Assembly: GCA_022600575.1 (NCBI GenBank)
Contig: JAHZKF010000010.1
Location: 1,930-65,929 of the forward strand
Length of the DNA: 64,000 nt
Direction: 5' to 3'
Source of the DNA: Gammaproteobacteria bacterium
GTDB lineage: Bacteria > Pseudomonadota > Gammaproteobacteria > Legionellales > Legionellaceae
Shown here: piece by piece, positions 48,857 through 52,949 of the stretch
Numbering within the stretch: the stretch's first letter is position 1
Layout: each line of letters starts with the position of its first letter
The notes under the pieces: generated by a model
The model's database searches: none
Told to the model about the DNA's origin: nothing
Seen by the model: only the letters and a program-made list of their open reading frames with translations
Program-made: the position numbers and the translations under genes

Positions 48857-49089
48857 AAGTTCAGTAAATACGTTTTACCATCTTTAGCGGTATAATTCAG
48901 TGAAACGCTTTACGCTTTAATAGTAATGCCGCGTTCGCCCTCAATGTCCATAGAATCAAGGACTTGCGCGCTCATTTCACGTGCACTTAAGCCACCACAA
49001 TGTTGGATGAAGCGGTTAGCAAGTGTCGATTTTCCGTGATCGATATGCGCGATAATAGAAAAGTTGTGGATTAAGGTTAGATCAGTCGC
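48857..49089 (-). pseudogene. lepA: decayed fragment of lepA (first 78 codons)
   Basis: Own translation: [77 protein letters not shown]. The start codon is GCG instead of GTG, and TAA replaces Gln60 (48910-48912). Confidence 0.85.
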
Positions 49090-49132
49090 TAATTATATCT
49101 CAATAGCAAGTGCCGTATTTTAGCCTAAATTT
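48857..49132. repeat. left arm of inverted duplication of the lepA 5-prime region
   Basis: The reverse complement aligns with 52672-52949. By hand I count about 9 substitutions plus one 1-nt indel over about 276 nt. Confidence 0.9.
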
Positions 49133-49213
49133 GGTAATTCAGATAGAGGAGCGCTTGAAAAGCATAGAAAGCATGTGTTACTCTTTACATATTACGTAGC
49201 ATGTACTATTTTT

Positions 49214-49492
49214 ATGATACGGTCCTTTAAAAATAAAGAAACACATCAAATTTATGTTGGCGAACGTGTCAAAAAATGGCATGGTTTTATTAAACAAGCA
49301 GAAAGGCGGCTTGAAGTTTTGGATAATGCCACTTGTTTAGAAGATTTAATGCATTTACCAAGTAATCGATTTGAAGCTTTAAATGATGATAGGAAAGGAC
49401 AATATAGTATTAGGATTAATATGCAATGGAGAATTTGTTTTGAGTGGATTAACAATGAACCATGCCATGTTGAGATAGTCGATTATCACTGA
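49214..49492 (+). CDS. higB: HigB toxin (RelE/ParE superfamily, plasmid maintenance system killer)
   Basis: MIRSFKNKETHQIY...QYSIRINMQWRICFEW...VEIVDYH is the typical HigB pattern. Start moved to ATG 49214. Confidence 0.85.
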   Translation: MIRSFKNKETHQIYVGERVKKWHGFIKQAERRLEVLDNATCLEDLMHLPSNRFEALNDDRKGQYSIRINMQWRICFEWINNEPCHVEIVDYH

Positions 49493-49504
49493 GAGGGCGT
49501 TATT

Positions 49505-49804
49505 ATGGTTAATAAAATGAGAGCGATACATCCTGGTGAAATATTAAAAGATGAACTAGATGCTCTTGGTTTGTCTGCAAATCAGTTTGCAATGAAATTA
49601 CATGTGCCTGCAAATCGAATTACATCTATTTTGAATGGAAAACGTTCTATTACACCAGAAACTGCTTTAAGGTTAGCGAAGTTATTTGGTACGACAGCAG
49701 AATTTTGGATTAATTTACAAACGACTTATGATTTAAAACAAGCATATAAGCGTTCTTGGAAAGTGATTGATCAAGAGGTTGAACAGGAATCACGTGCAGC
49801 TTAA
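49505..49804 (+). CDS. higA: HigA antitoxin (XRE-type HTH)
   Basis: 99 aa. IHPGEILKDELDALGLSANQFAMKLHVPANRITSILNGKRSITPETALRLAKLFGTTAEFWINLQ is the canonical HigA HTH. Lies 12 nt after higB. Confidence 0.88.
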   Translation: MVNKMRAIHPGEILKDELDALGLSANQFAMKLHVPANRITSILNGKRSITPETALRLAKLFGTTAEFWINLQTTYDLKQAYKRSWKVIDQEVEQESRAA

Positions 49805-49828
49805 AAATAACATTTTTTTATTGTCCAC

Positions 49829-49852
49829 GTGCCCTGACTTTTGTTCAGGGCA
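49829..49852. terminator. short hairpin GCCCTGA-CTTTTGT-TCAGGGC between convergent genes
   Basis: 7-8 bp GC-rich stem read directly. No clean U-run, so it is weak as an intrinsic terminator. Confidence 0.35.
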
Positions 49853-49868: not shown

Positions 49869-51509
49869 CTAGCTCATCGTCATTTGAGTATCGAAAAGCT
49901 TTTCTAGTGCATTATCATCGCTATACCAAGCTTTAAAAGCGGATAAAAGCTCAGGATTTGCATCCTGCAGATATTTTGCAACTTCTAAATGTAGACCAGG
50001 TACATGGGCTGTGTATTCTAATAATATGACGACATCGTCTTCGTTGACCAATAAATTAAGGAGTTTGGGTTTCATGTTTATAAATAATGTCATGCCTTGT
50101 GTGTCTTGAAACTTCTGGATTGCTCGACCTAAATTTTCAGCTGAATTTATAAGCTCGAGGAGTTTCATTTGCATAAGGTTAAAAAACGTGGGATGGGTGC
50201 CAGTAAAAAAGTATTTACTTGCTACGCTATCAAATGCTTCTACTGAGGTTATCTGCTCAGGAAGTTTATCCTGCATTACATTAGAAAACTTGCTCAGCAT
50301 AGTTTCTGAGAGATATGAGGCTATCATCTGAAATGCTTCCACGGAGCAGCTTGCTAGTTCAGGGAGAGTATCTTCTATGGCATTAAGAAAGCTATCAAGT
50401 CGTTCATCTCTGCCTTCAAAGAAACGTCCTTGATTTGAGAAACACGTTACTACGTTTTGTACATCTGTCGCTGATTTTATGTGTTTGAGAAGTAGCATTT
50501 GTATACGAGTCAGGAATAGCTTAAACCGTTCATTTGAGAGCAATTCCCCTATTGTTCCTATATCTTTCGCAGAAGCTACAAGCAGATGTAACTTATTTTC
50601 TATACGATTAAGAAACAGGTCGACTCGTTCATCGGGAAGTACTTTAAGTATTATTCCTAATTTTTCTGCTGAAGTAGTGGATGTAAGTAGCTTTTCTTGC
50701 AAGGCATCAAAAACAGTAATTAACTCTTCATTTGGAAGACATTTAGCTAGCATTTGAAAATCTTCCACTGAAGTGAGCAATTTAAGAAGTCTGTTTTGTA
50801 TAAAATTAAGCAATATATTAAGTTTTTTATTGTTAGACAAACAATAGATTAATTCAAACAAAGTTTCCGCTGAATCAATGAATTGGGGGAGTTGAGCTTG
50901 CATGATATGAAGGAATTGGGGGAAACATTCAAGTGGGATACACTTTGCTGTCGTATTAAATGCTTTCTTTGAAGAAATAAGTCCAGGAAGTTTATCTGTC
51001 ATAGTATCTAAGAATGTAGAAACTTTTGAAACAGAAGGATAACGAAGTAGATGAATGGCCTCATAAACCTCCTCTGCTGAGGTTACTAGTTGAGAGGCTT
51101 GTGTTTGCATCATATCTTGCAGCATATCGGCCGGATAATAATTAGAGCATTTTTTCCATTGCTGTATAGAGTTAATATTTAGGATTAAATGCTTTATTAA
51201 CGTCTTATATTTTTTAGATTCAAGATTAGCGCTTATCGCATCAAAAACCATTTGATTGTTTACGTATTGAGTGAGTTTGCCTTGCATTATCTCAAAAAAT
51301 ATTTCGAGTCGTTCGTCTGGGACGTATATCATTACTTGCTGCAAATCAACCCAGCTAGTTACCCATTGAGGAAAATTATGTTCAACGTTATCGAAGATTG
51401 TAGCGGGGTTGTAGTGTCTATGGCTTCGCTTAGGAAGTGTCTTAAATTCATGCATTAATTCTGTAAATGTCTTTATTGATTTTATCTCTGGGGTGGATTC
51501 AGTATGCAT
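49869..51509 (-). CDS. hypothetical tandem-repeat protein (546 aa, about twelve 33-34-residue helical repeats)
   Basis: ATG preceded by AAGGAA. A recurring motif ...F(L/I)xx(I/M)QxKLxxL(I/V)xS(A/V)Exxxxxhxxh(P/S)x(E)... has its S-(A/V)-(E/K) element at residues 144, 180, 213, 247, 280, 313, 346, 389, 422 and 456. Confidence 0.7.
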   Translation of the reverse strand: MHTESTPEIKSIKTFTELMHEFKTLPKRSHRHYNPATIFDNVEHNFPQWVTSWVDLQQVMIYVPDERLEIFFEIMQGKLTQYVNNQMVFDAISANLESKKYKTLIKHLILNINSIQQWKKCSNYYPADMLQDMMQTQASQLVTSAEEVYEAIHLLRYPSVSKVSTFLDTMTDKLPGLISSKKAFNTTAKCIPLECFPQFLHIMQAQLPQFIDSAETLFELIYCLSNNKKLNILLNFIQNRLLKLLTSVEDFQMLAKCLPNEELITVFDALQEKLLTSTTSAEKLGIILKVLPDERVDLFLNRIENKLHLLVASAKDIGTIGELLSNERFKLFLTRIQMLLLKHIKSATDVQNVVTCFSNQGRFFEGRDERLDSFLNAIEDTLPELASCSVEAFQMIASYLSETMLSKFSNVMQDKLPEQITSVEAFDSVASKYFFTGTHPTFFNLMQMKLLELINSAENLGRAIQKFQDTQGMTLFINMKPKLLNLLVNEDDVVILLEYTAHVPGLHLEVAKYLQDANPELLSAFKAWYSDDNALEKLFDTQMTMS

Positions 51510-51668
51510 GTTGCAATTTCCTTGATATTTTTTTGGTCGAAATTATACCATAAAATTTTATTTTGAATTAACTGGATTTTTTATGAGCAAATAAAAATTC
51601 ATATAATAGATATCAAAAAATTTTCAAAACATTTAAAAAAAAGTGACTATTTGCTTTTTGCATCGATT

Positions 51669-51692
51669 AATAAAGCTAGCGTAAGCTTTATT
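51669..51692. promoter_or_regulatory. 9-bp inverted repeat AATAAAGCT-AGCGTA-AGCTTTATT in an AT-rich divergent intergenic region
   Basis: Read directly within the 265-bp spacer between the divergent repeat-protein and Nudix-like genes. Confidence 0.3.
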
Positions 51693-51774
51693 TATAAATA
51701 CAAATATTAGACAATCTCTTTATTTTAGACATATACGCGATAAAAAAGACTTTTTTGTTAATTTAGAGGCATCA

Positions 51775-52611
51775 ATGAAAAATTATCGATTATTTCAAAC
51801 TATTTCAAGACATATTATAGGTAGTGCTAGTCTGCTTTATGCTGGTTATACCTATGGTCGCTATGATGCCACCAAAAACCCAGATTACTCCCTGTTAAAA
51901 TCCAATCAAGCAAGAGCATTACTACCAAGCCTGCTAGATGCAGCTAAAGTTCCTCATGGCGATATGGCGGTCCCTAGTCAAACCGTCCATAGCCGTAGAT
52001 TTTTCATATCTCAATGGCCGAGATCAGCAGTTGGTGCTTGTATTATGGTGCTTGGCACAGACGATGAGGGAGATATATGTGTTGCTGTTGGCCATCAACG
52101 AGGCTTATTAAGACATCCGCAAGGTTATATGGAGGTTAGATTACCTAAAGAAGATTTAACCGGTCTACGTGCTAAAAATGCTAGCAGAATCAATGCCTCA
52201 ACTGGCGAAGCTGTTCTAATAGATCATTCCATTGAAGATAATGCAGTGCGAGAAGTGTATGAAGAAATAGGATTAACTATATCTAAAAGCCAACTTAAAC
52301 TATTAAGCATAAAAAGTTCAATACAAGAAAACCCTGTGTGCATAGCAGGCATATATTATGTAATGTTAAATAATACACCGAATTTAAAAACATTAGATCA
52401 TGAATTTGCTGATGATGATTTAGCTAAACCTCAATGGATAAAGATAAAAAATATTATCTATAAAGAAGGAAAGTATTATGCATACCCTGGCTCATTGCCG
52501 TTTGACCCTGCCACCATTGAACAATTAAATGCAGCACTTTTAACGACAGACCATGCAGCGTTGTATGTTGGCGATGAATCTCATTCTAATACGGGCTTAT
52601 ATCAACCTTAA
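51775..52611 (+). CDS. Nudix-like hydrolase with N-terminal extension and atypical Nudix box
   Basis: 278 aa. ATG preceded by AGAGG. ...STGEAVLIDHSIEDNAVREVYEEIGLTI contains the REx2EExGU core, but the G-to-RE spacing departs from Gx5Ex7RE. Confidence 0.65.
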   Translation: MKNYRLFQTISRHIIGSASLLYAGYTYGRYDATKNPDYSLLKSNQARALLPSLLDAAKVPHGDMAVPSQTVHSRRFFISQWPRSAVGACIMVLGTDDEGDICVAVGHQRGLLRHPQGYMEVRLPKEDLTGLRAKNASRINASTGEAVLIDHSIEDNAVREVYEEIGLTISKSQLKLLSIKSSIQENPVCIAGIYYVMLNNTPNLKTLDHEFADDDLAKPQWIKIKNIIYKEGKYYAYPGSLPFDPATIEQLNAALLTTDHAALYVGDESHSNTGLYQP

Positions 52612-52671
52612 TGTAAGCTAATTCATAAAAACGGTAAAAATACCTTTCTGCATTATAATAGTATCAATGCG

Positions 52672-52949
52672 AAATTTAGGCTAAAATACGGCATTTGTTA
52701 TTGAGTATATAATTAGTGACTGATCTAACCTTAATCCGCAACTTTTCGATCATCGCGCATATCGATCACGGAAAATCGACACTTGCTGACCGCTTCATCC
52801 AACATTGTGGTGGCTTAAGTGCACGTGAAATGAGCGCGCAAGTCCTTGATTCTATGGACATTGAGCGCGAACGCGGCATTACTATTAAAGCGCAAAGCGT
52901 TTCACTGAATTATACCGCTAAAGATGGTAAAACGTATTTACTGAACTTT
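52672..52949. repeat. right arm of inverted duplication (functional lepA 5-prime region)
   Basis: Covers 44 nt upstream of the lepA GTG (52716) plus codons 1-78. Pairs with 48857-49132 in inverted orientation. Confidence 0.9.

Follow-up and report, generated by a model that had tools for sequence, protein, structure and literature searches.

How does a bacterial chromosome come to hold the beginning of a conserved housekeeping gene twice, in opposite orientations and with accessory genes in between? The question is raised by a 64,000-nt stretch of DNA (GenBank assembly GCA_022600575.1, contig JAHZKF010000010.1, positions 1,930 to 65,929; here called the window), in which the 5' end of lepA, the gene of the translation GTPase elongation factor 4 (EF4), is repeated in inverted orientation upstream of the intact gene. 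The window is taken from a 67,340-bp contig of a short-read metagenome-assembled genome (MAG). The gene content of the host includes NttC, LspL/M, and ankyrin proteins, and its nearest relatives are Legionellaceae; the relatives with which the locus was compared all belong to this family and, like the other contigs used, are referred to by L numbers. We conclude, with a probability of about 0.62, that one inversion of ~3.8 kb (48856-52671), specific to the lineage of this uncultured member of the family, took place in the variable gap between mltB and lepA and left the structure as its decaying scar.

The two arms of the inverted repeat were compared by global alignment (for the coordinates of all features, see Table 1). 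The reverse complement of the left arm (277 nt) and the right arm (278 nt) differ by 9 substitutions and one 1-nt indel, corresponding to 96.4% identity, and the similarity ends abruptly at both edges. The initial annotation had described an inverted duplication of ~276 bp with ~9 substitutions and one indel. Formal alignment bore this out exactly and moved the left start from 48857 to 48856, a trivial change. A repeat search of the region from 47 to 55 kb resolved the arms into a block of 243 nt with 97% identity (48856-49098 and 52707-52949) and a block of 34 nt with 94% identity (49099-49132 and 52672-52705), with the 1-nt indel between them. This pair is the sole direct or inverted repeat of at least 40 nt in the window and thus represents unique, nonrepetitive DNA, far beyond what chance would produce. 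In a MAFFT alignment, homology seemed to resume past codon 78 after an 11-nt gap, but only ~15 of 24 AT-rich positions match there, compared with 96% within the arm, and we dismissed this extension as chance.

The right arm comprises 44 nt of the lepA leader and codons 1 to 78 of the functional gene, whose product is 96% identical to LepA of the closest relative, L012. The left copy is dead, and for the two reasons originally given: its start codon is changed from GTG to GCG (49087-49089) and its Gln60 codon from CAA to TAA (48910-48912). It additionally carries three missense codons (R8H, D25N, and R51G), two silent changes, and, in the leader, two substitutions and a 1-nt deletion; 5 of the 7 coding differences are nonsynonymous, nonsense, or start loss changes. 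When both arms were aligned with 11 orthologous lepA 5' regions, the live copy had the state of at least 10 of the 11 orthologues at 7 of the 10 differing sites, and that of 8, including the closest relative, at an eighth site; the remaining two sites (52698 and 52751) are ambiguous. That seven or eight of the ten differences are derived in the dead copy fits an internal duplication, presumably followed by neutral decay. Furthermore, a single lepA 5' copy and no second one was present in each of 12 Legionellaceae relatives examined. The dead copy has accumulated 0.03 to 0.036 changes per site, as compared with a distance at fourfold degenerate sites (K4) of ~0.92 to the nearest relative. The event is lineage specific and fairly recent on the K4 scale, and it is too young for the strand skew to have re-equilibrated.

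The neighborhood of the two copies bears on their history. mltB and lepA are divergent neighbors throughout the clade, with a gap of 150 to 180 nt in L006 and L007, ~0.5 to 0.7 kb in L012 and L008 to L011, and 1.2 kb with one open reading frame (ORF) in L004. In the alignment of the 11 orthologous regions, the motif CTATCTGAA stands directly 5' of the arm in L012, L002, and L006 to L011, and in L003 with one mismatch. In the window, CTATCTGAA adjoins the dead copy, over the -35 position of a putative TAAAAT promoter; upstream of live lepA it is missing, and 52663-52671 reads AGTATCAAT. In line with this, BLASTN homology to the orthologues extends from the dead copy to 49146-49154 and, at the live copy, ends at 52672. 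On its inner side the dead copy retains ancestral sequence, with CTATCTGAA and the toxin-antitoxin genes higBA, and its outer joint is novel; in the live copy it is the inner joint that is novel, and the outer side has kept its ancestral continuity from codon 79 onward. At neither novel joint was microhomology found by inspection. These complementary neighbor contexts point to an inversion with a duplicated breakpoint interval. As judged from its sequence surroundings, the dead copy is the displaced original 5' end with the presumptive ancestral promoter context, and it is the live lepA that carries the novel joint.

The orientation of the enclosed genes was compared with that in L002, which has a higB pseudogene and an intact higA in the same gap. 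There, higB and lepA diverge, and higA lies on the mltB strand and abuts that gene; with mltB and lepA as the reference, higBA of the window is turned the other way. The dead copy, the spacer, higB, and higA are nevertheless collinear with L002, since 48856-49146, 49159-49256, and 49420-49803 correspond, in this order, to L002 8670-8962, 9046-9143, and 9140-9544.

Strand composition provided independent information on orientation. On the plus strand of the window, the GC skew at fourfold degenerate sites is negative in 49 of 49 informative background genes, whichever strand is coding (one further gene has a skew of exactly 0), with pooled values of -0.46 and -0.38. A classifier based on the synonymous codon usage of plus- versus minus-strand genes was correct for 50 of 50 genes in leave-one-out tests. 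Outside the arms, the orphan gene hyp188 fits its strand; inside, higA, higB, and the 546-aa repeat protein gene rep546 carry signatures of the strand opposite to the present one (Table 1). A classifier trained on L002 itself was correct for 18 of 18 genes, and L002 higA fits the strand that it occupies there. In the window, higBA and rep546 are inverted, and at least higB, higA, and rep546 probably spent most of their history in the other orientation. The earlier suggestion that inverted arms reflect an inversion or template-switch event is thereby backed on three sides, by the neighbor contexts, by the L002 orientation, and by the strand signature. The replication-strand bias of the window is unusually strong and uniform; it is weaker in L002 and L006.

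Table 1. Features of the lepA locus in the window and cargoes of the mltB-lepA gap in relatives (LLR, log-likelihood ratio of the strand classifier; GC4, GC skew at fourfold degenerate sites)
Feature	Sequence	Coordinates	Strand	Basis	Strand signature
Conserved mltB upstream region, bounding the ancestral sequence of the mltB-lepA gap on the left	window	48120..48195	-	aligned with L012, L003, and L004	
hyp188, lineage-specific orphan just beyond the left arm	window	48211..48777	-	no homologues found	fits current strand, LLR -14.1
Novel joint 1: reverse-complemented lepA codon 78 joined to the 78-nt region upstream of hyp188	window	48855..48856		alignment; L082, L083	
Left arm, dead lepA 5' end (from -44 through codon 78)	window	48856..49132	-	alignment and orthologue comparison	
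Ancestral lepA upstream sequence, kept only beside the dead copy; holds CTATCTGAA (49138-49146)	window	49133..49154	-	alignment with relatives	
higB, 92 aa	window	49214-49492	+	family search, PF05015, E=1.1e-13, above cutoff	weak minus-strand gene signature, -4.9 per 100 codons
higA	window	49505-49804	+	family search, TIGR02607, 100.5 bits versus cutoff of 47.7	full-strength minus-strand gene signature, -16.8 per 100 codons
rep546, 546-aa helical-repeat protein, no family	window	49869..51509	-	family and homologue search	plus-strand gene signature, LLR +34.4, +6.3 per 100 codons; GC4 +0.34 versus background of ~-0.4
nudix, Nudix-like, 278 aa, codirectional with live lepA and directly upstream	window	51775..52611	+	subthreshold NUDIX match	neutral, LLR +3.7
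Novel joint 2: sequence downstream of nudix joined to lepA -44	window	52671..52672		alignment; L001	
Right arm, head of functional lepA (-44 to codon 78)	window	52672..52949	+	orthologue state at nearly all differing sites	
Functional lepA (EF4), 603 aa, intact	window	52716..54527	+	PF00009 (GTP_EFTU), PF00679 (EFG_C), and PF06421 (LepA_C), all above cutoff	
Gap cargo: 8-kb cluster of Wzm/Wzt ABC transporter and glycosyltransferase	L003	1980-10001			
Gap cargo: 8-kb cluster of Wzm/Wzt ABC transporter and glycosyltransferase	L005	1-4615			
Gap cargo: SPOR-lactonase-SPOR genes	L173	263-4370			
Gap cargo: single 301-aa ORF	L004	8840-10001			
Gap cargo: higB pseudogene and intact higA	L002	8903-9557			

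An inversion with one staggered break would produce this structure in the following way. Read in the orientation of the window, the ancestral order would have been mltB, hyp188, and possibly nudix (all pointing left), rep546 (right), higA and higB (left), the promoter with CTATCTGAA, and lepA (right). One breakpoint would have been near the hyp188 side. The other would have been a staggered one within lepA, cut on one side at -44 and on the other behind codon 78, and through this stagger each end of the inverted segment would have received the 278-bp interval, the two copies facing opposite ways. The duplication would have left lepA intact, and the original 5' end, still joined to the ancestral upstream region and higBA, would have moved to the far side, where it would have decayed neutrally since. 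Whereas the arrangement of the two copies is directly visible, we infer the molecular mechanism: an identical footprint would be left by template switching during replication, or by a flush inversion that cut lepA in two, after which one side was repaired through homology. The latter repair would be homology-facilitated illegitimate recombination, which is known from naturally transformable bacteria.

The footprint itself is familiar from eukaryotes. A passage of Ranz et al. (2007; PMC1885836) reports it at 17 of 29 Drosophila inversions, and the staggered-break model is reviewed in PMC7584159. As in the inversions of Drosophila and primates, nonrepetitive, single-copy DNA that includes a gene fragment occurs once at either end of the segment, the two copies facing opposite ways, and does so only in the derived arrangement; each copy keeps its original neighbor on one side, and neither a mobile element nor a recombinase takes part. 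At our locus, the inverted duplication is unique, it is absent from the outgroups, its two contexts are complementary, and the enclosed segment, as judged from higBA and rep546, is inverted with respect to the outgroup. In contrast to those cases, which concern chromosomes of Drosophila or primates and chromatid end-joining, ours is bacterial, and only one breakpoint is staggered (by 278 nt). Literature searches, which were not exhaustive, yielded no bacterial example of a staggered-break-type inversion footprint. The novelty is modest: a footprint known from eukaryotes has a well-supported counterpart in a bacterium, without any new molecular system. Its value is that of a bacterial case resolved to the base, in which an inversion hit a conserved gene that survived thanks to the duplication of the breakpoint interval, and which shows that regulatory rewiring is possible without a mobile element. 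Furthermore, in genomes with a strong strand bias, one MAG contig is enough for a strand classifier based on synonymous codons to date small inversions and determine their orientation.

Several observations weigh against this reconstruction. The staggered-break model was made for eukaryotic end-joining. The signature of nudix is neutral, although an opposite-strand one is predicted; nudix may be a younger arrival or may have been outside the segment that was originally inverted. Foreign genes, moreover, could by chance carry any skew. We found no genome with the uninverted order; hyp188 is an orphan, and no relative has more than 87% MltB identity on a usable contig. The adjacency predicted for the second breakpoint, of nudix or rep546 to hyp188, was likewise seen in no relative. 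P0178 (L173), which was examined as a candidate closer relative, contained yet another gap cargo. The ancestral orientation of higBA is taken from one genome (L002), and higBA is mobile: 0 of 80 metagenome HigA loci adjoin lepA or mltB. The differences between the arms are clustered, with 8 in the inner 117 nt versus 2 in the outer 161 nt (binomial P=0.017), which the inversion leaves unexplained. Finally, the link between flanks and enclosed genes over a whole arm is provided by one MAG contig, and other assemblies break inside the arms.

The same final topology, with the ancestral inner end on the dead copy and the novel one on the live copy, could also have arisen in two steps. An inverted 278-bp copy of the lepA 5' end would first have been placed between hyp188 and nudix, and a single, RecA-dependent flip would later have exchanged the inner ends; the identity blocks of 77, 56, 36, and 26 nt between the arms could support such a homologous exchange. 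We consider this history unlikely. It needs a second event on top of a first step that is itself unexplained (an isolated inverted copy with two novel joints), and it predicts that the outer part of the dead copy, which would have been dead since the first step, is at least as diverged as the inner part, dead only since the flip; this is the opposite of the clustering described above.

An origin of the enclosed DNA from outside had also been suggested. Family searches confirmed the gene content first read from the sequence, namely, higBA, a 546-aa repeat protein, an AT-rich divergent spacer between rep546 and nudix, and the Nudix-like gene. The AT shift of these genes is also real: the enclosed segment has a GC content of 0.349 versus 0.409, and GC at third codon positions (GC3) in higB and higA is 3 to 4.8 standard deviations under background. 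The mltB-lepA gap is a recurrent cargo site in the clade (Table 1), with no integrase seen among the cargoes of L003, L005, L173, L004, and L002. However, the arms do not bracket one acquired cassette, as had been supposed, because higBA is an old neighbor of lepA at this site (L002) and hyp188, an accessory orphan, is located outside the arms. A fragment of lepA brought in from a diverged donor is equally at odds with the alignment. Seven or eight of the ten differences arose in the dead copy, which leaves no more than 2 of 277 positions that might be donor specific; a donor as diverged as any sampled relative (83 to 87% nucleotide identity) is excluded, and the donor must have been at least 99% identical.

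What is left of the import idea is a block consisting of lepA codons 1 to 78, the promoter, higB, and higA, which would stem from an L002-like arrangement and would have entered, inverted, next to a resident lepA with nudix already upstream of it. Modules of the higBA type are widespread and mobile, the low GC3 of higB and higA is in agreement with such an origin, and codirectional cargo directly upstream of lepA, with loss of CTATCTGAA, is found in L004 and L173 as well, which fits nudix as a separate resident insertion; the neutral to plus-strand signature of nudix is also as expected. A donor at least 99% identical belongs to the same population, so that import becomes hard to distinguish from an internal event, and the changes beyond the at most two donor-compatible ones are unique and mostly inactivating. 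The block would also leave the opposite-strand signature of rep546 unexplained, and it requires two illegitimate joints, with no trace of the resident's own CTATCTGAA region. We therefore regard import as improbable.

Integrative elements provide a further comparison. Elements that insert at the ends of housekeeping genes, such as dusA-specific islands and e14 in icd, leave direct repeats and encode an integrase. The resemblance lies in a displaced, decaying fragment of a conserved gene beyond accessory DNA, with the gene itself intact; the differences are that our repeats are inverted, that no integrase was found, and that higBA, part of the supposed insert, is ancestral to the locus. As noted at the outset from the sequence, no integrase, invertase, or transposase is visible, and among the ORFs that we scanned over the 64 kb, none matched a Pfam family of recombinases, integrases, or transposases. 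In addition, no defense-system model matched the enclosed genes, a search for a plasmid origin gave only generic matches to RelE/ParE-family toxins, and literature searches returned nothing relevant on lepA as an integration site or a phase-variable gene. For annotation, the locus is a warning that an inverted repeat of a gene fragment flanking accessory genes is not necessarily an imported cassette or a phase-variation switch.

The initial annotation had raised the latter possibility, an ON/OFF switch for EF4. Without a dedicated recombinase, recombination between the arms would flip the 3.5-kb segment, toggle lepA between ON (GTG) and OFF (GCG plus missense changes), and swap the genes behind the ancestral promoter. 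Such a flip is mechanically possible. The arms are inverted, 277 bp long, and 96.4% identical, and in silico all identity blocks of at least 25 nt (36, 77, 26, and 56 nt) are 3' of the start codon, so that nearly any crossover would graft the GCG start onto lepA. According to passages of PMC4245954 and PMC4324249, lepA is dispensable in Escherichia coli and EF4 promotes death under lethal stress; going by these E. coli passages, an EF4 OFF state could be viable or even useful. Moreover, some programmed inversions have no recombinase nearby (Milman et al., 2023; PMC9881135). An active switch of this kind would be a recombinase-free, bet-hedging device on a universally conserved translation factor, and each flip would bring the ancestral promoter back to the lepA side or pass it to hyp188-mltB-lspLM (type II secretion).

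Nevertheless, we regard an active switch as highly improbable. Among the ORFs scanned across the window, there is no invertase or other recombinase. The alternative orientation is seen in none of the contigs (a single one spans an arm, and the others break in the arms). The opposite-strand signature is of full strength in higA and about half strength in rep546, which means that the times spent in the two orientations are not comparable. Ten differences between the arms have not been homogenized, which argues that exchange has been rare, and the outer part of the dead copy has extra lesions that would be pointless in a switch (R51G and the stop at Q60) and that look like those of a pseudogene. 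At 3.6% divergence, RecA-mediated exchange is very infrequent in the presence of mismatch repair. The alternative 5' end has no start codon and carries R8H and D25N (together with R51G and the stop, depending on the crossover point), and hence offers no usable allele. In the programmed gene-altering inversions of PMC9881135, as here, one arm is within a coding sequence and the other within a silent partial copy, and our in silico flip alters the 5' end of the gene. Those systems use short, conserved recombination sites and target surface, restriction-modification, or tail fiber genes; our arms are long, diverging, and pseudogene-like, the gene is a housekeeping translation GTPase, no recombinase is nearby, no second orientation was seen, and the alternative allele is null rather than variant.

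Inverted homologous segments within one chromosome are also formed by tufA and tufB or by copies of the rrn operon, which undergo RecA-mediated inversion or gene conversion. Like our arms, they are possible substrates of exchange, but these copies are full-length, functional, and homogenized by conversion. At the lepA locus, one partner is a 277-bp pseudogene with 8 to 10 private changes, which indicates little or no exchange. The remark made along with the switch proposal, that the structure may equally be a fossil, has turned out to be the better reading, with one orientation resolved, no invertase, and a history on the opposite strand.

We compared the MAG contig, which is the sole contig linking the flanks to the enclosed genes across a whole arm, with other assemblies. 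Three of these, from the same or sister samples, fragment at the arms (ENA ERZ23491219/SAMN20209033, GCA_022599525.1, and Logan SRR15145662): the last base of contig L082 is 48879 and that of L083 is 48911, L088 begins at 49112, and the Logan contig L001 covers exactly 49024-52781, i.e., 30 nt (k-1) beyond the last inner single-nucleotide polymorphism (SNP) on each side. The outer-left joint between hyp188 and the arm is independently present in L082 and L083, and both inner joints, with arm-specific SNPs, are present in L001 and L088. The orientation itself is given by the MAG contig, L001, L082, L083, and L088 being uninformative in this respect. In the assembled orientation, all inactivating changes are on one copy and lepA is intact; a flipped version would spread the lesions over both copies of a gene whose conservation is otherwise perfect. 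No match to an exact 30-mer of the outer-left junction was found in JGI metagenomes, and exact-protein look-ups with rep546, HigA, Nudix, hyp188, LepA, and LepB returned only contigs that end in the arms or do not reach them, the LepA product having no record.

That the arms do not coexist as drawn, in a chimeric or misjoined contig, is barely credible, even with a short-read MAG as the source, fragmentation of three same- or sister-sample assemblies exactly in the arms, and a chimeric or recombinant L083: ten arm differences in a pseudogene-like pattern are not expected of an artifactual fold-back, L001 independently holds the enclosed genes and both inner arm ends with distinct SNPs, L082 and L083 hold the hyp188-arm joint, and the only alternative resolution is a flipped segment, which would still have the inverted repeat, with lesions split over both copies.

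L083 (GCA_022599525.1, JAHZIM010174918.1) was compared with 46857-48911. It is identical to the window from the arm via hyp188 to 47464 in mltB, and beyond this point, over lspL and what remains of mltB, it has ~70% identity. Either two Legionellaceae that occur together were joined in a chimeric metagenome contig, or L083 stems from a real recombinant strain with the hyp188-arm junction in common with the window.

Returning to the inversion, its regulatory consequences can be outlined from the positions of promoter elements. The displaced ancestral promoter (CTATCTGAA and a TAAAAT -10 at 49117-49122, minus strand) would face the dead fragment and then hyp188-mltB-lspL-lspM; between the left arm and hyp188, no minus-strand terminator is predicted, and downstream of hyp188 follows mltB-lspL-lspM. 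Live lepA would keep only the -10 core, 104 nt downstream of the codirectional nudix. Plus-strand transcription through the dead copy into higBA would give a 277-nt RNA antisense to the lepA start region, which we offer only as a lead. A promoter-like site (CAGACA-16-TAAAAT, 48816-48843, plus strand) is located 13 nt outside the dead copy and is directed through it to higB; in shuffled sequence, however, promoter-like sites turn up just as often as here.

Divergent Legionellaceae share the 9-nt motif CTATCTGAA, which is placed 15 nt upstream of the putative -10 of lepA (GCTAAAATA). We tried it as a sigma-70 -35 box, but at any allowed spacing at most 2 of 6 positions match, and it is only a conserved upstream motif, which may be a regulator site. 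It is lost wherever cargo is directly upstream of lepA, i.e., at the live copy of the window, in L004, and in L173.

Among the enclosed genes, higBA has the features of a HigBA type II toxin-antitoxin module, with a HigB-like RelE-fold toxin (PF05015) encoded ahead of a helix-turn-helix HigA antitoxin (TIGR02607), the reversed gene order that characterizes higBA. The module of the window is itself ordinary, and its value is that of a positional marker, the L002 module being decayed and in the other orientation at the same site. In L002 higB (9101-9215), the N- and C-terminal pieces are kept and the middle is deleted; the intact L002 higA is 91% identical to that of the window and is an orphan antitoxin retained beside mltB. 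Homologues of nudix, with up to 64% identity, carry PF00293 and are found in unrelated genomic contexts.

The protein encoded by rep546 is helical, with repeats of ~33 aa, and the DNA repeats are spaced by 99, 198, and 225 nt. A close homologue is lacking, and the remote relatives, at 20 to 28% identity, are proteins of 800 to 1600 aa, one of which has an ADP-ribosyltransferase exoenzyme domain, the other Pfam matches on these relatives being subthreshold noise. From these similarities, rep546 may be an effector-type repeat scaffold. L088 and L089, contigs of two independent assemblies, both end at 51261 in rep546, just before an internal repeat copy (51278-51317); this shared break hints at strain heterogeneity or repeat collapse in rep546. 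The AT-rich divergent region between rep546 and nudix contains a 44-nt imperfect palindrome (73% complementary, with a 6-nt spacer) at 51634-51727.

Elsewhere in the window, 10 sizeable ORFs have no Pfam family at E<=1e-5 (loci 3205-4128, 9275-12102, 26695-27575, 37210-38445, 41067-42815, and 60508-62427). They are situated among housekeeping genes, which is typical of Legionella-type effector or orphan genes. The gene for Fis (57001-57300) belongs to the housekeeping set and is syntenic. Between lepB and rnc, an ankyrin-repeat gene of 220 aa (55234-55896, plus strand) overlaps the lepB end; it is missing in 12 of 12 relatives, in which lepB and rnc are only ~20 to 80 nt apart, and its product weakly resembles the Dot/Icm effector AnkY/LegA9. 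By its appearance, this is a eukaryote-like gene that was inserted into the conserved lepA-lepB-rnc operon in this lineage only. Directly after rnc, on the opposite strand, 56561-56943 encodes a class A bacterial RNase P RNA (341 bits), which explains the GC-rich stretch and the spurious ORFs at this position.

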